Below are positions 1,436-34,922 of a DNA stretch of 64,000 nucleotides, piece after piece. The stretch comes from Candidatus Poriferisodalis sp. (GTDB lineage Bacteria; Actinomycetota; Acidimicrobiia; Acidimicrobiales; Poriferisodalaceae). The notes beneath the pieces were generated by a model. It ran no database searches, was not told the DNA's origin, and saw nothing but the letters and a program-made list of their open reading frames with translations. Where the stretch lies: NCBI GenBank assembly GCA_965221195.1, contig OZ244864.1:2006219-2070218 (forward strand). Reading direction: 5' to 3'. The position numbers and the translations under genes were made by a program. Every line of letters begins with the position of its first letter. Within the stretch, counting starts at the first letter, position 1.

Positions 1436-2026
1436 TCACAGAAGTTCGCTCACGTCGAGAGCTAGGAGCACGACGAGCAAGACGATGATGCCGGCGTTCA
1501 AGGTGCTAATCGGCCATTTCCATCGGTGCCCGACACGCCAATGCCGTCTGATGCTGAGCGCGTTCGCCCATAGCGCAACCGCTGCGATGGGGATGCCCAC
1601 TGCTGGTCCGACACCCGGTGCTAGGCCGATGAGGGGTGCCGCGAAAGGCAGGATCACATAGGTCAGCGTGCAACGCACAGCCGAGATCAAGACAGAGAAC
1701 CGGAACGTCCGAGCCGATGCCTCTTCGAGTTCGGCAGCAGTGGGGGCAGCGGTTCCGCTCACGGTGACCCATTCTCGCAGCCGCCGCTCGCTGATGGGGG
1801 CACCGCCGCTGGTGTGTGTCAGCGGCTGGGTGGATGGGCCGCTGGTGTTTGCCAGCGGCTGTGCCTCTGGGCCGCTGGTATTTGCCATCGGCTGGGTAGA
1901 TGGGCCGCGCATCTGGGCCGCTGGGCTAAGGGGCGAGATGGGCTGTGGGGGGTTACTACGATCTCTGTTCAGCGCCGCTACCTCGGCGCGACTGTCGGCT
2001 GTGTCTGGGCGATGTCTGGACGACAT
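1436..2026 (-). CDS. membrane protein with N-terminal Pro/Thr/Ser-rich repeats and two C-terminal TM helices
   Basis: Repeats STQPMANTSGP / EAQPLANTSGP / STQPLTHTSG. The C-terminus has hydrophobic helices (YVILPFAAPLIGLAPGVGPAVGIPIAAVALWA, NAGIIVLLVVLLAL). Start codon uncertain. Confidence 0.45.
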   Translation of the reverse strand: MSSRHRPDTADSRAEVAALNRDRSNPPQPISPLSPAAQMRGPSTQPMANTSGPEAQPLANTSGPSTQPLTHTSGGAPISERRLREWVTVSGTAAPTAAELEEASARTFRFSVLISAVRCTLTYVILPFAAPLIGLAPGVGPAVGIPIAAVALWANALSIRRHWRVGHRWKWPISTLNAGIIVLLVVLLALDVSELL

Positions 2027-2099
2027 CTGGGCTATGTCTGTCGGCAGCGTTCATCGGCCCACTAAACATACCAGCCCCAAGCACACCAAGGGAGCAGCT

Positions 2100-25354: not shown

Positions 25355-28300
25355 AGACATCGACTTGGCATCGTTGAATCTCCCCTTCGCCGACCCCCCA
25401 GATTTAGCCCCCCCCCCCCCCCCAGAGACTTAGCTTCTGAACCAGACGTCGAGAGCCTCGTCACGGTCGGTGAGGTCATTGAGCGCATTCGAACCACCAG
25501 CCGTGACGAACACGAAAAGGGGCGATGGTTTGAGGAACTTGTCAAGATCGTCTTCCTCAACAGCCCTACCTACGAGATTGAAGAGATTGAGCACTGGGGG
25601 CAATGGCGTGACCGCCAGCCACTAACAGGGCTCAGCCGCAAAGACACCGGCATCGATCTTGTCGCGCTCCACCGCAACGGCAGCCGTATCGCTATCCAGT
25701 GCAAGTGCTATGCGCCCACCCAGCGAATCGCCAAGCCTGACATTGATTCGTTTTTGAGCCAATCTCAGGTAACCGACGCGGCTGATCGGCCTGTCTTCGC
25801 GATGCGGTGGATCGTCACAACGTCGCCGTGGACTGATAACGCGGCGGCTCAGGTTGACAGCTTGGACGTAGGAGTTCGCCGGATCGACTTCTGTCAGCAT
25901 GAGTTTGAGAAGATCAGCGAGAAGCTGCAACGGCGGCCGGTGCGTGCGCCTTGGCCGCGTCAAAGCGAAGCCATCAACAAGGTCACCGAGGGGCTGTCGC
26001 ACCACGACCGCGGTCGGATGATCATGGCCTGCGGTACTGGTAAGACGTTCACTGCGTTGCGTATCGCGGAGAGCGTGGTGCCCGACGGCGGACGAATCGC
26101 GTTCGTGGCACCGAGCATCGCATTGGTGGCACAAGCACGCCGCGAGTGGCTGATGCATTCGCGGCGTCCGTTGGAGTGCGTCGTTGTGTGTTCTGATGAA
26201 TCCGCTGGTGGTCGCGCTGAGAGTGCCACAGCGATGCGCATCTGCGAGCTGGAATGTCCGGTGGACAGGTCGCCGGAACGGCTTGGGGCGATGCTTGACC
26301 CCGCCCGCGGCACCGACCTAACACGCGTGGTGTTTTGCACGTACCAGTCGCTACAGCATCTCCACGACGCTCAAAACTGCCATGCAGCCGGAGCGTTCGA
26401 TCTGGTGCTCTGCGACGAAGCGCACCGCACTACCGGGGCTGTGTCGGACGCAACCGGGGCTGCTCGAGAAAGCGGCTTTCAGCGTGTGCATGACAACGAC
26501 TGGCTGCGAGCCCGCAAGAGGCTGTACATGACGGCCACGCCCCGCATCTACACCACCTCTTCTAAGGCAGCGCTGGCAGGGCGCGGTATCGCAACCGTCG
26601 ACATGAGTGACATGCACATCTACGGCCCTGAGCTTGAGCGTTTGTCATTCAAGGAGGCAGTCGAGGGTGACCTGCTGGCCGATTATCGGGTGATTGTGCT
26701 GGGTGTCCATGAGGGAGCGATTCCCGCGGGTATGCGGCAGCGTCTCATTGACTTGGGCGACAAAACCGCCGAGTCGCAGGCCGCGAAGTCGCCATCCTCT
26801 CAGACGGGCTCGAAGCCGTTGGTGGTCACCATCGAAGACTTACAGCGACTGCTAGGCACCACGCTCGCTATCAACGGCATGACATCGGGTAGCGACTTGG
26901 AGGTCCCTGAGCGTTTAGATCGCATCATCGCGTTTGCTAACTCCATCGCGAGATCAAAGTTTTATGCCAAAGGTCTCACCGATTCGCAGTTGCGTGCTCT
27001 CATCACTCGCCGCCGACGCGCAGGCGGCGAAACCGAAGGCGCTACCAAAGTCGAGGCAACTCATCTAGACGGAACAGCGCCTGCCTTTGAACGCAGCGAG
27101 GAGCTACGCAAACTGGAACGAACCCGCACAGACCAGTGCTCGCGCGTGATCTGTAACGCGAAGCTGCTCACCGAAGGCGTGGATGTGCCGTCGCTGGACG
27201 CGGTGGTGTTTATGGAACCGCGTGACAGCCAAGTTGACATCGTGCAGGCCGTCGGGCGGGTTATGCGACGCGCGGAGGGCAAGAAGCTCGGCTACATCGT
27301 GATTCCGGTGCCGGTGCCGCCGGGCGCGGACTTGGCAACTGCACTCGAAACGGGCGGCAGCGGTTACGAATCGGTCGGTCAGGTGCTAAGAGCGTTGCAA
27401 GCTCACGACGGTCGCCTCGCTGAGACTCCTGCCCGTTTCGTCAAGGTTGGCGAGATCAAACCCCCCAAACCCACCCCCAACGGCGACACGGGCGGCGACA
27501 GCGACGTAGTACCCATCGACGATGGCGGGGAGGCCGCTCAGCTCAAGTTAGATCTGCACAAAGCGGGCGCTGCTATCTACGCGCATGTCGTTGCGGCGTC
27601 GGGCTTGGGGTCGGCGGGCAAGCTCGTAGCCGACGATCTCGGCATGGCTGTGGCGTTTGCTGGTGCCCGTTTCGCTGAAGGCAACCTCGCAGCGCCGCTA
27701 GCAGCAGCGCTCGGCGGCCTGACCGTTGACGACACCAACCAGAATGACATCTGCAAAGTCGCCGCGCTGGTGCTCATCAATGCCTGCCTGTTGCACCGGC
27801 GCTTGCGTGAGGTGCCTCGTTTTGGCGACATTGCCGACTTGGCCAGCGTGACTGGTGCTGGCGACCCAGCGGAGATCTTGGCTGCGGGTTGGGAACAGAT
27901 TCTTGACCATGATTATGAGCCGGTGTTTGGACCGGCGCTGTCGGTGCTGCGACAACTCCCACCGAGGCCGTTCGCTACCGAAGCGCTGCGGAGCTTGGCT
28001 GAGTGCGCTAACCGCACCGCCGACTCGCTCAGCGAGATGGGTTACGACCACGCAGGTCCGCTGTATCACCGCATTTTGCCCAACGCAGCCGCCTACGGCG
28101 CCTTTTACACCAAGAACCTGTCGGCGCTCATGCTGGCACGCCTGGCCATCAACCACGACTTCGCCGATTGGTCAGACCCAGAGGCGATTGCTGCTTTGAA
28201 GGTCATGGATCCTGCTTGCGGCACCGGCACGCTGCTGATGGCAGCGCTGCGAGTGCTCAAAGAACGCGTCCGTGAAGCCAGACACCAAACATCAGATACT

Positions 28301-29599
28301 GATAACACCAGCACGGCCTCCGACACCAGCACAGCCTCCGACTCCGGCGTCGTTGACCCTCACGAGACCGCCCTTCACAAGACAATCGTTGAGAACGTGC
28401 TGCACGGACTCGACATCAACTTGCCTGCCATTCAGTTCGCGGCCTCCAACTTCACCTTGGGTGCCCCCACTGTTGATTACCGCAAGATGAACCTGTTCAC
28501 GCTCCGTCACGGCCCACAACCCGACGGTTCGATGATGGCCGGAACGCTGGAAGTGCTCGGTTTCGCCGACACCGACGCGTCGCTTGCGAACCTGGTTCGC
28601 CACGCCAACGCTGCGTCCGTCGGCACGCAGTTGACAGATTCTGGAGCCGAGTTCCCGATCAGCGACATCGACTTGGTCATTATGAACCCTCCTTTCACCA
28701 ACAACGTGAAGAAGGGCTCACAGTTCTCACCGTCCGACAAGAAAGCCATGCAACAACACGAACTCGGGCTGCGCGACTCGCTGTTGCAAACCGATCCGAT
28801 TGCTGGCGCGACCATCGACGCAAACAGCATCCAGACCTACTTCACCCCAATAGTCGACCGCATGCTGAACACGCACAACGGGATATTGGCACTGGTATTG
28901 CCGACGACATTGTTCACCGGTTCATCAGCAACATTGCAACGTCGCTTCATCGCCAGCAAGTTCCACATCGAAACCATCATCACGTCACACGATCCCAAGC
29001 GCATCAACTTCTCTGAAAACACCGGCATTCACGAATGCCTGCTCGTCGCTCGCCGTCGTGGCAGCCAACCAAACACAGCAGCTAGCGATCCGCCTACACA
29101 GTTCGTGTCGTTAGCCAAAATGCCCTCAACGCCTGACGAAGCTCTCGCCGCAGCCGACGCAATTGCAAGTGGCGAACTCGGTGAGTGGGGCAACGTCACG
29201 CTGTGGCCATCTGAGCGTGTGCGCGACGGCGACTGGTCGCCGGTGCAGTGGTACGACGGCAGTCTCGCCGAAATCGCACTGTCGCTCGAAGCTGGCAACT
29301 TTGCGCCGTCCGCACTTGACGGCTCGCTGGCTGGGAAAACAGGCCTGAGTGGGCTGACTGGGTTGTCTAGCGGGGGGGGGGCAGATTCGGCCCTTCAGGC
29401 CAAGCAGTCCGAGGGGCCTTTGCGCTCTGCGGGCACACCACCGGATCGAACCCGACGGCCGAGCCGTACGCGGAGCATTCCAACAAATGAACGCGTAGAT
29501 GAAACCGCCAATGAACTCAAGCCAGCCCGCCAACGCCATGCCATCGGACCGGGGGGGCAACGCATTCAAGATGCCTTCGAGAAACGAATCACCCAGTGA
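25355..29599 (+). CDS. type ISP-like single-polypeptide R-M enzyme (Mrr-like nuclease + SF2 DEAH helicase + N6-adenine methyltransferase); no in-frame start before 25754
   Basis: The frame is open from 25355. Nuclease core: EKGRWFEELV...GIDLVALHRNGSRIAIQCK. Helicase motifs: ACGTGKT, LVLCDEAH, MTATPR. Methylase motifs: DPACGTGTLL and DLVIMNPPFT. The first ATG/GTG/TTG in this frame is at 25754, inside the nuclease domain. Confidence 0.8.
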   Translation, partial: RHRLGIVESPLRRPPRFSPPPPPRDLASEPDVESLVTVGEVIERIRTTSRDEHEKGRWFEELVKIVFLNSPTYEIEEIEHWGQWRDRQPLTGLSRKDTGIDLVALHRNGSRIAIQCKCYAPTQRIAKPDIDSFLSQSQVTDAADRPVFAMRWIVTTSPWTDNAAAQVDSLDVGVRRIDFCQHEFEKISEKLQRRPVRAPWPRQSEAINKVTEGLSHHDRGRMIMACGTGKTFTALRIAESVVPDGGRIAFVAPSIALVAQARREWLMHSRRPLECVVVCSDESAGGRAESATAMRICELECPVDRSPERLGAMLDPARGTDLTRVVFCTYQSLQHLHDAQNCHAAGAFDLVLCDEAHRTTGAVSDATGAARESGFQRVHDNDWLRARKRLYMTATPRIYTTSSKAALAGRGIATVDMSDMHIYGPELERLSFKEAVEGDLLADYRVIVLGVHEGAIPAGMRQRLIDLGDKTAESQAAKSPSSQTGSKPLVVTIEDLQRLLGTTLAINGMTSGSDLEVPERLDRIIAFANSIARSKFYAKGLTDSQLRALITRRRRAGGETEGATKVEATHLDGTAPAFERSEELRKLERTRTDQCSRVICNAKLLTEGVDVPSLDAVVFMEPRDSQVDIVQAVGRVMRRAEGKKLGYIVIPVPVPPGADLATALETGGSGYESVGQVLRALQAHDGRLAETPARFVKVGEIKPPKPTPNGDTGGDSDVVPIDDGGEAAQLKLDLHKAGAAIYAHVVAASGLGSAGKLVADDLGMAVAFAGARFAEGNLAAPLAAALGGLTVDDTNQNDICKVAALVLINACLLHRRLREVPRFGDIADLASVTGAGDPAEILAAGWEQILDHDYEPVFGPALSVLRQLPPRPFATEALRSLAECANRTADSLSEMGYDHAGPLYHRILPNAAAYGAFYTKNLSALMLARLAINHDFADWSDPEAIAALKVMDPACGTGTLLMAALRVLKERVREARHQTSDTDNTSTASDTSTASDSGVVDPHETALHKTIVENVLHGLDINLPAIQFAASNFTLGAPTVDYRKMNLFTLRHGPQPDGSMMAGTLEVLGFADTDASLANLVRHANAASVGTQLTDSGAEFPISDIDLVIMNPPFTNNVKKGSQFSPSDKKAMQQHELGLRDSLLQTDPIAGATIDANSIQTYFTPIVDRMLNTHNGILALVLPTTLFTGSSATLQRRFIASKFHIETIITSHDPKRINFSENTGIHECLLVARRRGSQPNTAASDPPTQFVSLAKMPSTPDEALAAADAIASGELGEWGNVTLWPSERVRDGDWSPVQWYDGSLAEIALSLEAGNFAPSALDGSLAGKTGLSGLTGLSSGGGADSALQAKQSEGPLRSAGTPPDRTRRPSRTRSIPTNERVDETANELKPARQRHAIGPGGQRIQDAFEKRITQ
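25408..25423. repeat. homopolymer C16 between the candidate start codons and the body of the type ISP-like gene
   Basis: Counted directly as 16 c. The upstream frame (ATG at 25245 or 25344) terminates at 25431-25433, and the enzyme frame is open from 25355. Confidence 0.95.
29372..29381. repeat. homopolymer G10 near the 3' end of the type ISP-like gene
   Basis: Counted directly. A G7 tract follows at 29551-29557. Confidence 0.9.
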
Positions 29600-30439: not shown

Positions 30440-31594
30440 TCAGCGTTTGAGCAAGCTCTTGGCTCGCCGGACGGCTGGCGTCCAAAACCACTCGAGCTCA
30501 GCGAAGCGGCGATAGTCCTCACCGGGTAGCTCCATCGGGTCGTAATAGCGCGTGCCGGGCTGCTTGCGGAGTTTGTTCATCCGCTTCATCACCTGTCGGG
30601 TGGCATACAGCGTCCCTTTGTGAGTCCAGCCCTGCCGGTGGTAGTTCCAGTTGTCAGGTGCGAGTTCTTGAGCCGCGGCGAAATACTTCAAGGCTTGCTT
30701 GCTGTCGTCGGTGGCCTCAAAGTGGAGCGCTAGCTTGAACGTGGCCTCGGCCAACAACAGGTTGTCATCGACCGGCTTGAGCTGCGATTTGAGTTCTGCG
30801 CTCGACCAGACATGCTCGCTGTCGGCTCCCCGTTCAATCCAGTCGCGAGTGGCCTGTGCGTACGTGTCGTTGCTTAACCGCACTTTGCCGAGACCGAACT
30901 TGAAACTCATCTCGCCCGGGTACACACCTTCGTTGCTGCGAACAATGCGCCCCTCTTCGTCGATCCAAGCCGCCGAAGGCACATTCACCCAACCGAACAG
31001 CGAGCTGATCTTGTGAGTGGTATCGACGATGCAGTGATAGGTCGGCGACGCCCGGTCAAACCACTTGGCCACGGCGCCCTCGCCGCCTGAGTCCTGTGCC
31101 ACGCTGACCAGCTTGAAACGGTCCGGGCCTATCGATTCGTAAAGCTCCTGCCAGACCGGCAGGCTGATGCGGCAACCTCACCAAGACGACCAAGTGAACA
31201 GCACCACCTTGTGGCCTCGAAGATCGGAGAGTCGCAGCGTGTTGCCGTTGCGTTCGGTCATCTCGAAATCGGGAGCGATTCCCGAATCCAGTCCAAGGCG
31301 GCGAACCTCGGGCACTGAACTCAAACTCCACACATCGCCGTCACGTACGGTCTGTTGACCGATCATGTCGGCAAAGGACGAATAATCGAGCCACACCCAA
31401 CCGTCTACGTCAGCGATCCAGTCCTCTCGCTTGGCCTCTGGAAGCGGCACACACATCTCGCCAAGGCACGCTCCTTCGGGTTTCATCTGCCAGCCCGTGG
31501 CCTGAGGCAGTTCGTCTACCCGCACCCACAAGCCGCTCGGATCGTCGGTGCGTCGCGCAATTTCTGTCTTGTGGTCGTTAGCGAGAATGATCAT
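30440..31594 (-). CDS. thioredoxin-fold (ResA/TlpA-like) protein with in-frame TGA at the redox motif, a candidate selenoprotein, plus TPR-like C-terminus
   Basis: Track ORFs 31178-31594 and 30440-31102 are in the same frame. Read-through of the TGA at 31178-31180 gives ...RLSDLRGHKVVLFTWSSW-U-GCRISLPVWQELYESIGPDRFKLVSVAQDSGG... A SECIS-like hairpin lies 14 nt downstream. Confidence 0.6.
31147..31163 (-). promoter_or_regulatory. SECIS-like hairpin
   Basis: On the coding strand: CCUGCC-GGUCU-GGCAGG, a perfect 6-bp stem whose GGUCU loop starts 20 nt after the UGA. This is similar in placement and loop sequence to my memory of E. coli fdhF (GCA-GGUC-UGC). Confidence 0.45.
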
Positions 31595-31630: not shown

Positions 31631-32062
31631 CTAGGCGGGTGTGTCAGCGCGGACCAGACGAAAGACCGGGATCTCACGTCCGTGTTCGGTGGCGCTCTTC
31701 TCGTACTCGACGAACTGCGGCATCAGCGCTGCTTGAGCATCGAACAGCCGCTTACGTTCGTCACCTTCAGTGAGCACTGCCGTGGCTTCCCAGGTGTCGG
31801 TGCCGACTTCGACCGTGACGGTCGGGTTGGCTACGAGGTTGTGATACCACTGCGGGTTTTCTGGGGCCCCGCCCTTGGAAGCGATTACCACTACGTCTTC
31901 GCCTTCGGTGGAATACACCAGCGGCGAGCACAGTTCCCGGCCGGTCTTAGCACCGGTCATGGTCACAAGGACCACCGGTGCTCCTTCAAGCCAGCCGCCG
32001 CAAGTGCCTCCGTTCTCACGGAATTCCTTGATCACACCTGCGTTGATCTCCAAAAAATCCAT
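31631..32062 (-). CDS. deazaflavin (F420H2)-dependent nitroreductase family protein (DDN/DUF385)
   Basis: 143 aa with NAGVIKEFRENGG, VLVTMTGAKTGRE and ENPQWYHNLVANP signatures. Confidence 0.85.
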   Translation of the reverse strand: MDFLEINAGVIKEFRENGGTCGGWLEGAPVVLVTMTGAKTGRELCSPLVYSTEGEDVVVIASKGGAPENPQWYHNLVANPTVTVEVGTDTWEATAVLTEGDERKRLFDAQAALMPQFVEYEKSATEHGREIPVFRLVRADTPA

Positions 32063-32266: not shown

Positions 32267-33157
32267 CTACTTGGACGCTTCCGCTCGGCGCTTACGTACC
32301 TCGGGGTACGCATCCGCTGGCATGTGGGCCAAGGCCTTTTCGACGAGTCGCCGAAAGAATTCGCCCGCCGAGAGATCCTCCGGTGTCCTGTCGTGTACTA
32401 CCGCGACACTGCCGGTTGATTTAGATGGTTGTTCGTTGGCAAGGTCCGGTCCGTTTGTAGGAGCCGTTGTTGTTGTCAACTCTTCGAACAGCAGCAAGCA
32501 GGTGCAGTCGTAGACATCTGGCTCCGACCTGAGCTTGCTAAGCATGTCGATTGCGAAATCGATTTCTGCATCCGAAATATCGTTGCCTGCGACGAAAAGG
32601 AATCCCAGCGCCGACAAAGGGTGGCGACCCCGCAGGTTCTTGGCGTCGCCATAGCCCTCTTCAAATCGGTTGCGTAGATTCTTCGCATAACTGGACAGCA
32701 TTGTCTTGGTACTGATGAGCACTTCAACACCAGCCGCCCAAGAAGCAATAACAACATCACCCTGCTTGAGATAGGCGCTGCCCATGACACGGGCTTCAGC
32801 TGGAAGTGCGCTTCGGGCTCCCGGCGCGTGATAGCGGCTCTCCACCTCCGAGCGAAGTCCGCGAGTAAGTGCTTTCTCGACGAAGTGGCGGATGTCTCGT
32901 GGAAGGATCCGCGGACTCTGGCGGCGTGGCCACACATCGTCTGCGTTGAAGCCGGCTCGGCGCAGTTCCTCTGCGGCCCACACATCTGCAGCCCCTGCGA
33001 CGATGCCTGAAGCCTGCGTCGCACCGGCAGCGACACGCAGCAGCTGCTCAAGCAGGTCGAAATCGGGCATGAATTGGCCGTTAGGGTGCCATGGATTGAC
33101 GAACGGTTCCTTGGGAACGAAATCGTCGAAGCGGTCGAGCTTTTGGGGTTGTGCCAT
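32267..33157 (-). CDS. putative type II restriction endonuclease
   Basis: 296 aa, 37 nt downstream of and co-directional with an N6-adenine methylase. Possible D...E-x-K-like core (GDVVIASWAAGVEVLISTK). Family not recognised. Confidence 0.5.
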   Translation of the reverse strand: MAQPQKLDRFDDFVPKEPFVNPWHPNGQFMPDFDLLEQLLRVAAGATQASGIVAGAADVWAAEELRRAGFNADDVWPRRQSPRILPRDIRHFVEKALTRGLRSEVESRYHAPGARSALPAEARVMGSAYLKQGDVVIASWAAGVEVLISTKTMLSSYAKNLRNRFEEGYGDAKNLRGRHPLSALGFLFVAGNDISDAEIDFAIDMLSKLRSEPDVYDCTCLLLFEELTTTTAPTNGPDLANEQPSKSTGSVAVVHDRTPEDLSAGEFFRRLVEKALAHMPADAYPEVRKRRAEASK

Positions 33158-33194
33158 CTTGACCCTTATTCGTCTGCGGACTAGGTGCTTGGGA

Positions 33195-34922
33195 CTAGGT
33201 GCTTGGGAATGAGTTCTTGCGGGCTGAAGCAGTGCTTGAGTGTTCAGGAAGCGTCACACCGTAGATTCGTTCCGCTGCACATGTCGCCATGGAGCGGTCT
33301 CTCATTTGGAAGGCATGCCGCAGGTCGGCTTCGTCTCGCATGCTGAGTGAAGACGGGAGAGGAACCCGGATCTTGCGCAGGTATTGAGCTTGGAAGCGAT
33401 AGGTACCGCCTCGCATTTTGACGCAGTAGGCCCCGACGAGCAGGTTCGCAATGTCCGACAGCAGAAGACCCCCGAGGATTTCGAGGTCCCAAGCGTCGGA
33501 GACGATGTAATAAAGGTTGTGGTGAGGGTAATAACGTCCAACGTCGAGTACCGGATGCGCCGCAGCCTTGATGTCGGGGAGTAACAGTTTCGGCCTCTCA
33601 AGTAACCCGGGTGTCACGCGGTCAATCGTCCGGTACCAAGCGGTCGGTTTCCGGCGAGCAACATGGCGACTCCTCACACGCAATTCGTGGGTACGTAGAT
33701 GCGCAGCCAGACCAGGAAAATCTGCGAGTTCCACCAACCGTCCGTCTTGCCATGGGTTGATGAGATACTTGCCTGACCACCTCACTACTCCGCCTGCGGT
33801 GTCGCTTGCGATCAGTAGCGGCAGCAGTCGGTCGTTTTCGATGCCGGTCGGGTTGTCGGACACGTAGATGTCGTCGCATCCGGTGGCAACGCCGATGCCC
33901 ACTCGCGTCCCCGTACACGAATCTTCAAGTGGGCGAAAACGCGACTCAAGATCGGCTAGTACCTCGAGTGTGCTCGGCGCACCAGTAGGCCAGTGGGCGC
34001 TTCCTCTAGGCCAATCTCGAAGCTCAGCCGTCTCGAAGGACTCACCCGCAGGCACCTCTTGCGCATCGGAACGAAACCAAGCCTCAAGGCTGCGGCTTGC
34101 TGATTCGTCAAAAGAGTTGTCGGTTGCCACAAACCGGACGCTTCCTTGGGGGGCATTTTGAATCACGGTGATGGCTGGATACGCAGACACATCTTTCTCA
34201 AAAGCATCGGCATCATGCATCTCAATGAGTGTTTCCAGTGCATAACGCGCGCCGACGAGTTGTCGAAGACGAGTGCCGTACTGGTTGTGCATCCAACGGT
34301 CAGCGCAAATGAAACCGAGGCGGCCACCCGGCCGCAGGAGCGCAAGGCCCTTCTCGAAGAATCCAACGAACAGGTCTGCTCGTCCTCGCATCGTCGAACA
34401 TGCCTCCCTGTATGCATAGGCGACTTCATCCGGTATGTGCTCCAGCCGGACATAGGGAGGATTGCCGACGACGAAATCCACAACGAGATTGCCGCCATGG
34501 TCGGCGAGCAGGAAGTCATCCGCCGTGATCCATTGTGCAGCCAGATGTTCGGCGACATCGACTGGCTCGCCGAGTTCTAGGAGCTTGGTCACGACGGCTC
34601 TGCGTGTGTGCTCAGCATTGTGTGGCAACAGATCAAATCCCTTGACTGCGTCGCCGAGGTCGGTGAGTGTGCGACCGTGTTGTCGGCAAGATGCCGACAG
34701 TCGCTCAATGATCGGGATGAGGAACGCCCCATAGCCGCAGGAAGGTTCCACGATGGTAGCCATACCAAGGTCTTTATCGGATCGGTACCCGACCAAGTCC
34801 AGTATGAGATCGACCACCCACCGGCGCGTAAAAACCTGGCCGTGCTCGCCCTCGGGGTCAGGCATCCAAGCAAGGGTCGGCGCGGTGGTCGTCGGCGACA
34901 ACTGGGCACTTCTCATCGCCAA
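33195..34922 (-). CDS. N6-adenine DNA methyltransferase (gamma class, Eco57I/TaqI-like)
   Basis: 575 aa. SAM motif VEPSCGYGAFL, catalytic FVVGNPPYV, and a long C-terminal specificity region. Confidence 0.85.
   Translation of the reverse strand: MAMRSAQLSPTTTAPTLAWMPDPEGEHGQVFTRRWVVDLILDLVGYRSDKDLGMATIVEPSCGYGAFLIPIIERLSASCRQHGRTLTDLGDAVKGFDLLPHNAEHTRRAVVTKLLELGEPVDVAEHLAAQWITADDFLLADHGGNLVVDFVVGNPPYVRLEHIPDEVAYAYREACSTMRGRADLFVGFFEKGLALLRPGGRLGFICADRWMHNQYGTRLRQLVGARYALETLIEMHDADAFEKDVSAYPAITVIQNAPQGSVRFVATDNSFDESASRSLEAWFRSDAQEVPAGESFETAELRDWPRGSAHWPTGAPSTLEVLADLESRFRPLEDSCTGTRVGIGVATGCDDIYVSDNPTGIENDRLLPLLIASDTAGGVVRWSGKYLINPWQDGRLVELADFPGLAAHLRTHELRVRSRHVARRKPTAWYRTIDRVTPGLLERPKLLLPDIKAAAHPVLDVGRYYPHHNLYYIVSDAWDLEILGGLLLSDIANLLVGAYCVKMRGGTYRFQAQYLRKIRVPLPSSLSMRDEADLRHAFQMRDRSMATCAAERIYGVTLPEHSSTASARKNSFPST

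Follow-up and report, generated by a model that had tools for sequence, protein, structure and literature searches.

A thioredoxin-fold gene interrupted by an in-frame TGA in a sponge-associated Candidatus Poriferisodalis is predicted to encode a single selenoprotein of the UGC-redoxin family

In a 64-kb stretch of the Candidatus Poriferisodalis genome, which was analyzed as a whole and is called the window here, two minus-strand reading frames very probably constitute a single gene that encodes a 384-residue selenoprotein, with the TGA at codon 139 decoded as selenocysteine (Sec). In the architecture of this gene, a ResA/TlpA-type thioredoxin fold lies between a family-specific N-terminal domain with a C-x4-C pair and a helical, weakly TPR-like C-terminal domain, and the UGA stands where the redox motif would have its nucleophilic Cys. 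A family of UGC-containing Prx-like/TlpA selenoproteins is already in the literature (PMC2398784; PMC13188914); the 2008 Global Ocean Sampling selenoproteome lists it as "Prx-like (UGC-containing)" (pfam00578; motif UGC), with 46 Sec sequences and 855 Cys homologues (PMC2398784, Table 2). Because the family was thus known, our result mainly corrects an annotation error that is repeated across the genomes of sponge-associated Acidimicrobiia. It introduces no new kind of system or mechanism, and its value lies in this correction and in documenting selenium use in these bacteria. The features of the locus are collected in Table 1.

Table 1. Positions of the gene, its predicted functional elements, and neighboring genes in the window
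Feature	Position	Strand	Remarks
Complete CDS of the predicted selenoprotein	30440..31594	minus	384 residues, Sec at 139; ATG at 31592-31594, own TGA stop at 30440-30442; taken as one full-length CDS from homology to NF041054 and to full-length Cys homologues of 365-417 aa and from dN/dS of 0.08-0.22 on either side of the TGA
In-frame TGA, predicted Sec codon U139 in W-S-S-W-U-G-C	31178..31180	minus	Supported by aligned codons in relatives
Cys141, predicted resolving Cys of the U-G-C redox motif	31172..31174	minus	TGC or TGT in all relatives examined
Putative bacterial SECIS, 17-nt hairpin	31147..31163	minus	5' arm CCUGCC 31163-31158, loop GGUCU 31157-31153, 3' arm GGCAGG 31152-31147
N-terminal family-specific domain (~residues 1-105)	31280..31594	minus	Covered by the NF041054 profile and by no Pfam domain
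Conserved C43 and C48 in G-A-C-x4-C-[VI]-P	31451-31468	minus	Both Cys kept across family alignments
Thioredoxin-fold domain (ResA/TlpA/AhpC-TSA-like), residues 107-226, bearing U-G-C	30917..31276	minus	Pfam AhpC-TSA, E = 1.5e-15; Redoxin, E = 7.6e-13
C-terminal helical domain (~residues 244-384) with conserved motif APDNWNYHRQGW	30443..30865	minus	Weak TPR-like signal
F420H2-dependent quinone reductase gene	31631-32062	minus	Immediately upstream of the selenoprotein gene
Helicase/N6-methylase fusion, 1281 aa	25754-29599
Eco57I-type methylase	33195-34922

The original prediction, made from the DNA alone, had read the two ORFs (31178-31594, 138 aa, with an ATG start; 30440-31102, 220 aa) as one candidate selenoprotein gene split by ORF calling. 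An ORF check and translation confirmed that they share a frame and that the sole stop between them is the TGA at 31178-31180. Translation likewise returned the proposed read-through product of 384 aa, i.e., 384 codons followed by a terminal TGA (...GHKVVLFTWSSW*GCRISLPVWQELY...; in a longer stretch, ...LRGHKVVLFTWSSW*GCRISLPVWQELY...), in which the peptide around the in-frame TGA reads ...FTWSSW-U-GCR.... The protein begins directly at the conserved core of the family. Since an in-frame stop sits 12 codons upstream of the ATG, with no alternative start in between, it is without a signal peptide. A scan of the 64-kb window for other genes with an in-frame TGA gave no further convincing candidate.

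To follow the in-frame TGA across relatives, DNA was compared at 80 species-representative genome loci and 80 metagenome loci (scan seeded with a Planctomycete-type protein). TGA occupies this codon in 77 of the 80 genome loci and in 76 of the 80 metagenome loci (153/160 in total), and hence it is not specific to this strain; the frame is maintained across it in every locus. The remaining seven loci carry a Cys codon (TGT in three Saprospiraceae genomes and TGC in four metagenome loci) within the motif WAxWCGC, or WASWCRC in one of them. The TGA-bearing loci span Acidimicrobiia, Planctomycetota, Hydrogenedentota, and other groups. The closest carriers (71-81% identity) belong to sponge-associated Acidimicrobiales, namely, Ca. 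Poriferisodalis, Ca. Aldehydirespirator, and Spongiisociaceae, and more distant ones include a "Deltaproteobacteria" MAG, a Hydrogenedentota MAG, a Pirellulaceae MAG, and a Planctomycetaceae MAG. The homologues share the motif W-[AS]-x-W-[U/C]-G-C. The original prediction had worried that the U-G-C spacing, being unlike that of CxxC, might betray a nonsense mutation; this worry proved unfounded, since the Cys forms read C-G-C and the spacing is therefore a signature of the family.

At the protein level, the best match to the window protein in the searched collections has 80-81% identity. The nearest ~60 database proteins (~55-80% identity) are all C-terminal fragments of 211-249 aa that start just past the TGA position, and gene callers have therefore halted at the same TGA throughout. 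Two named public records of relatives that we checked are both truncated (P0012, "TlpA family protein disulfide reductase," 242 aa; P0026, "hypothetical protein," 220 aa). The full-length homologues (353-417 aa; 37-44% identity) have WA[ST]WCGC in all eight of those retrieved. One could take the fragments at face value and suppose that translation terminates at the UGA and resumes from a separate downstream start, giving polypeptides of 138 aa and ~220-245 aa that assemble or act independently, with the downstream hairpin (see below) serving re-initiation or having no role. In many relatives, GTG or ATG starts do occur soon after the TGA, and the window contains no sel genes. However, a break at this point would cut the thioredoxin fold exactly at its active-site nucleophile, and the Cys homologues are single chains. 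Moreover, the inferred starts vary, as the range of product lengths among relatives attests, so that there is no conserved internal start; the frame is kept across the TGA at every locus, and those relatives examined that have lost the TGA have Cys in its place. We consider a pair of separate polypeptides very unlikely and favor one continuous selenoprotein.

The family to which this protein is related is a curated one. The original prediction had pointed to a ResA-like WAxxUGC selenoprotein family, and such a family indeed exists: the top NCBIfam match is NF041054, "ResA-like WAxxUGC motif-containing protein" (WAxxUGC_long; E = 2e-77, with U scored as C), positions 8 to 322 of whose 354-position profile align to residues 24 to 328 in one stretch. 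The score of 260.7 bits nevertheless lies under the curated equivalog cutoff of 300, so the threshold is not reached. Among the proteins scored, only Cys-form relatives of the Planctomycete-type proteins pass it (P0089, itself Planctomycete type, 325 bits; P0111, from Sumerlaeota, 302 bits). The Acidimicrobiia clade as a whole (260-270 bits, with the orthologues at 267-270) falls below it, as do several other clades in the range of 236 to 291 bits, i.e., the Planctomycete-type Sec forms L078 and L080 (254 and 285 bits), the Sec form of the "Deltaproteobacteria" MAG (L067, 291 bits), and the Cys forms of Saprospiraceae and Aureibacter (236-249 bits). The curated cutoff thus misses the entire Acidimicrobiia clade.

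In other respects, the window protein has the hallmarks of NF041054: the "long" architecture of an N-terminal domain, a thioredoxin fold, and a C-terminal helical region; the W-x-x-W-U-G-C active site; the alternation of Sec and Cys; and a hairpin whose position is common to the TGA-carrying Planctomycete-type relatives. Its active site, W-S-S-W-U-G-C, contains U-G-C and both Trp residues but has Ser in place of the Ala of WAxxUGC; Ser occupies this position in 45 of 72 members of the same clade and Ala in the remainder; the motif is mostly W-S-S-W rather than W-A-x-W. It further differs from the curated family in being without a signal peptide and in an extra C-terminal tail of ~55 residues, which is also present in the Saprospiraceae and Aureibacter Cys forms. 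By sequence, then, the product is homologous to the UGC-redoxin family and is predicted to work like its members, yet it fails the equivalog cutoff. A literature text search found no paper using the name WAxxUGC and none on Poriferisodalis.

A structure was modeled with AF2 for the full-length Cys homologue P0046, which is 41% identical to the window protein. The model (pLDDT 92.5; pTM 0.89) has three packed parts: an N-terminal domain predicted to consist mainly of beta strands with two helices, a central domain with a thioredoxin fold, and a C-terminal part with predicted helices at 244-345 and 371-385. In a fold search, the central domain matched the structures of ResA, DsbE, TlpA, StoA, and Etrx with a target TM of ~0.78 and an rmsd of 1.6 A. 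In the C-terminal domain, the Pfam TPR matches are weak (residues 282-315), and the invariant columns of the alignment are P313, N315, W316, R320, and Q321. ResA, TlpA, and DsbE (CcmG) are extracytoplasmic thiol-disulfide oxidoreductases that are membrane anchored and single domain and that act in the maturation of cytochrome c or copper centers. The window protein shares the central thioredoxin fold with ResA of Bacillus subtilis, TlpA of Bradyrhizobium, and DsbE, and its hydrophobic lead-in F-T-W-x-x-W resembles that of ResA-type redoxins. It differs from them in having U-x-C where they have C-x-x-C, in its two extra domains, and in apparently having no export signal. Given the absent signal peptide, the Acidimicrobiia form is probably cytoplasmic, while the Planctomycete-type relatives, whose N-terminal leaders are hydrophobic by inspection, appear to be secreted.

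Downstream of the UGA, the mRNA can form a hairpin with a perfect 6-bp stem and a 5-nt loop that spans nt 18 to 34, counting the U of UGA as nt 1. The CCUGCC-GGUCU-GGCAGG element and its distances had been part of the original prediction, and all of the coordinates check out (31163-31147), with 14 nt between the TGA and the stem and 20 nt between the TGA and the GGUCU loop, which begins at nt 24 from the U of UGA. The hairpin falls within codons S144 to E150, which encode S-L-P-V-W-Q-E. Within the window, a perfect 6-bp hairpin of any kind that starts 10 to 20 nt downstream accompanies only 1.3% of the 2132 TGA trinucleotides, and one of exactly this geometry 0.09%. In fold energy, a 59-nt stretch does not surpass its shuffled versions (z = -0.24), which makes the case for the hairpin a comparative rather than a thermodynamic one.

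For this comparison, 124 distinct TGA-type 48-mers were used. The four inner pairs are formed in every one of them, pair 19-33 is formed in 92%, and the outer pair 18-34 is C-G in 65, U-A in 49, U-G in 1, and mismatched in 9. The loop conforms to N-G-N-N-U throughout, its main forms being GGUCU, AGGCU, AGGUU, and CGUGU. The 5' base of the outer pair falls on the third, synonymous position of Asp, Ser, or Asn codons, and its 3' base opens the codon of a variable residue (K/S/T/R with U-A; E/D/A with C-G). Changes from Pro to Ser (CCA to UCA) and from Pro to Leu (CCN to CUC) retain the stem through G-U pairs. One sub-clade, comprising Hydrogenedentota and Planctomycete genomes and related metagenome contigs, has GAC(g)UGCC...GGCAGUC, a 7-bp stem with a bulged G. 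Conversely, the hairpin is missing from six of the seven Cys forms; its retention in the seventh, L093, suggests a recent Sec-to-Cys change. The mean MFE of nt 12 to 41 is -10.5 +/- 1.7 kcal/mol in Sec forms versus -4.1 +/- 2.3 in Cys forms.

The expectation that homologues would keep the hairpin was thus borne out for the TGA forms, but that of covariation was borne out to a limited extent, amounting to about two events. The close Acidimicrobiia clade taken alone gives no significant covariation (a single compensatory change, equalled by 50 of 500 shuffles), which appeared only once distant metagenome relatives were added; on a neighbor-joining tree, the C-G/U-A switch across the family corresponds to ~2 independent events. 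The raw Fisher P value of 4e-30 for the outer-pair association is inflated by shared ancestry and is not usable as evidence. Much of the stem, moreover, is a by-product of the conserved peptide L-P-x-W-Q when it is written in the favored codons CUG and CAG. Of 25 Leu columns in the close clade, Leu145 (CUG) shows the strongest codon constraint, and Ser144 is always AGC. Synonymous change is genuinely suppressed at the hairpin codons, although not there alone: they rank among the three lowest 5-codon windows, the other two of which lie just upstream of the UGA. Searches with the Rfam SECIS models gave no match, either at the gathering threshold across the whole window or at E <= 10 in 31050-31250; Rfam covers bacterial SECIS elements poorly, a point also made in bioRxiv 10.64898/2026.04.03.716425.

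The proposed likeness of this hairpin to the apex of the Escherichia coli fdhF SECIS was checked against the actual fdhF sequence and holds. There, the apical stem-loop is GGUUGC-AGGUCU-GCACC, with GGUCU from nt 22 (nt 24 here). Both elements lie directly downstream of the UGA inside the coding sequence, and both are 17-nt apical stem-loops with an identical GGUCU loop. They differ in that the stem in this clade is a perfect 6 bp with no bulged U and begins at nt 18 rather than nt 15 (a spacing of 14 rather than 11 nt), and no conserved lower stem was found.

The machinery for Sec insertion was sought both in the window and around the loci of relatives. Neither selA, selB, selC, nor selD was found within the 64-kb window, whose tRNA genes are tRNA-Leu only, with no tRNA-Sec or remnant of one. 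Likewise, tblastn with E. coli SelA, SelB, and SelD gave nothing in the window or in ~1.6 Mb of flanks (80 flanking loci of relatives). One relative (L041, chromosome OZ243951.1), whose orthologue is 71% identical, has a tRNA-Sec gene (anticodon UCA) located 8 kb upstream of that orthologue; both ARAGORN and Rfam RF01852 recognized it, the latter at 64 bits (gathering score, 47). This gene is the sole direct sign of Sec machinery obtained here. In another Acidimicrobiia lineage, Actinomarina, selA, selB, selC, and selD are reported along with about five predicted selenoproteins per genome (bioRxiv 10.64898/2026.04.03.716425).

These observations bear on a further alternative, in which the UGA is read through without Sec, by a near-cognate Trp or Cys tRNA or a suppressor tRNA, under stimulation by the hairpin. 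Its appeal lies in the shortness of the hairpin, in the E. coli SECIS features, namely, the bulged U and the 11-nt spacing, that the hairpin is without, and, again, in the absence of sel genes from the window. Against it, the UGA swaps only with Cys codons at a redox-active position, and UGA/Cys alternation at a redox-active site is the classic signature of Sec and Cys. In addition, a relative bearing an orthologue has a tRNA-Sec, and both the curated model and the literature treat the family as selenoproteins (NF041054; PMC2398784; PMC13188914). Read-through by another amino acid is accordingly given little credence here, about as little as two separate polypeptides, and decoding as Sec is preferred.

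We also examined selection on either side of the TGA. When the window gene is paired with 11 orthologues, the part upstream of the TGA has dN/dS of 0.08-0.16 and the downstream part 0.10-0.22 (dS, 0.7-3.0), and these ratios indicate that both halves are under purifying selection. A global reassignment of TGA was ruled out, since TGA is the terminator of most genes in the window: it ends 11 of 17 long ORFs, including the gene at 30440-31594 itself. Although a lone in-frame stop splits an otherwise intact gene and the U-G-C spacing departs from the canonical CxxC, a nonsense mutation or sequencing error that makes the locus a pseudogene or an assembly artifact of this strain has next to no credibility, because the same TGA recurs at independent loci from different species, phyla, and assemblies, dN/dS is ~0.1-0.2 on either side at saturating dS, and the Cys homologues carry C-G-C. 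On these grounds, i.e., the conservation of the TGA, the low dN/dS on both sides, and the use of TGA to terminate most ORFs, we exclude a nonsense mutation specific to this strain, a sequencing error, and a reassigned code. The reading as a split selenoprotein gene is thus supported by TGA conservation, alternation with Cys, the kept hairpin, and selection on both halves.

The flanks of the gene are not syntenic with those of any of the 80 relatives, and no cytochrome maturation genes were present among the flanking ORFs scanned; three flanking genes are included in Table 1.

By analogy with Sec insertion in other bacteria, the stem-loop at 31147-31163 would act as a SECIS bound by SelB-GTP-Sec-tRNA(Sec), and the bound complex would direct Sec insertion at the UGA instead of termination. 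From the fold and motif, Sec139 would then attack a substrate disulfide (or a peroxide or sulfenate), Cys141 would resolve the intermediate as a U-G-C selenenylsulfide, and this would be recycled by a cellular reductant. We tentatively advance a broader reading, which we hold to be possible rather than probable: the sponge-associated Acidimicrobiia (Ca. Poriferisodalis, Aldehydirespirator, and relatives) might possess a distinct, apparently cytoplasmic UGC-redoxin subfamily with Sec in all members examined, in which the N-terminal C-x4-C pair, the U-G-C center, and the TPR-like domain may form a self-contained redox relay acting on a substrate unlike that of the secreted Planctomycete-type proteins. 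Its minimal 17-nt SECIS would be co-encoded with L-P-V-W-Q, and it might have been missed by annotation in at least 70 species.

For annotation, the region 30440-31594 should be recorded as one 384-residue selenoprotein rather than as two ORFs, and the orthologues in more than 70 species-level Acidimicrobiia genomes, mostly of sponge symbionts, call for the same change. This would imply that these sponge-associated symbionts use selenocysteine. The compact conserved hairpin, as a putative SECIS, could serve to find more selenoproteins in their genomes.

The gene for the ResA-like selenoprotein is flanked on both sides in the window by restriction-modification-like genes, and none of the 80 relatives that we compared shows synteny with these flanks. 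Because of this lack of shared gene order, the region around the gene is, as judged from sequence comparison, a variable and island-like one. The closest upstream neighbor encodes an F420H2-dependent quinone reductase. It is separated from the selenoprotein gene by 36 nt and shares its strand, and the two may therefore be cotranscribed; this neighbor is common to only about 1 in 80 of the relatives. A second context is offered by L041, a related locus on chromosome OZ243951.1 that carries the orthologue. Here, the tRNA-Sec gene is followed by about 8 kb that contain long ORFs and then by the selenoprotein gene. A few of the intervening ORFs resemble mobile or defense genes by eye only (a methylase fragment and an HNH-like protein). 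Their presence, together with the tRNA-Sec gene, ahead of the selenoprotein gene suggests that selC is an integration hotspot in this chromosome, comparable to the selC integration hotspot reported in Actinomarina (bioRxiv 10.64898/2026.04.03.716425).

Features of the selenoprotein gene, its neighborhood, and the tRNA-Sec locus of the related chromosome
Feature	Location	Strand	Remarks
ResIII helicase + N6_Mtase/Eco57I methylase fusion, 1281 aa	window 25754-29599	+	restriction-modification-like
C-x4-C pair, residues C43 and C48, N-terminal domain	window 31451-31468	-	conserved in protein alignments A1 and A3
F420H2-dependent quinone reductase	window 31631-32062	-	PF04075, E = 6e-35
Eco57I-type methylase, 575 aa, adjoining unannotated 296-aa ORF	window 32267-34922	-	restriction-modification-like
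tRNA-Sec	L041 (OZ243951.1) 1966-2061		
~8-kb stretch with long ORFs after tRNA-Sec	L041 2140-9800		

Among the related loci, we observed several departures from the usual active site and hairpin. L093 (metagenome contig Ga0315910_10040729) is a Cys form (TGC) that retains a full hairpin, UUGCC-CGGUU-GGCAG (minimum free energy, -8.5 kcal/mol). This hairpin resembles a vestigial SECIS that has outlasted a recent change from Sec to Cys. Another Cys homologue, L084 (metagenome contig Ga0070665_100001098), has the active site C-R-C instead of C-G-C and no hairpin. In a subclade of Hydrogenedentota and Planctomycetaceae genomes and related metagenome contigs (L078, L080, L095, L122, L127, and L143), V-P-V-W-Q-S replaces L-P-x-W-Q. 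The stem of this subclade is built differently: it reads GAC(g)UGCC...GGCAGUC and contains a bulged G, reminiscent of the bulged U in the Escherichia coli fdhF SECIS.

Codons 127 to 133 (G-H-K-V-V-L-F; window 31196-31216, minus strand), which lie shortly before the UGA, likewise show strong suppression of synonymous variation. Across 72 orthologues, the AAG, GUG, and UUC codons of this segment are invariant or nearly so, and V130 and V131 are two of the three Val columns, out of 18, with the tightest constraint. This suppression could come from biased codon choice where residues are conserved, or it could mark an unrecognized upstream context element for recoding. Farther toward the N terminus, the C43/C48 pair is kept in all full-length family members of both alignments and could constitute a second redox center or a structural disulfide.
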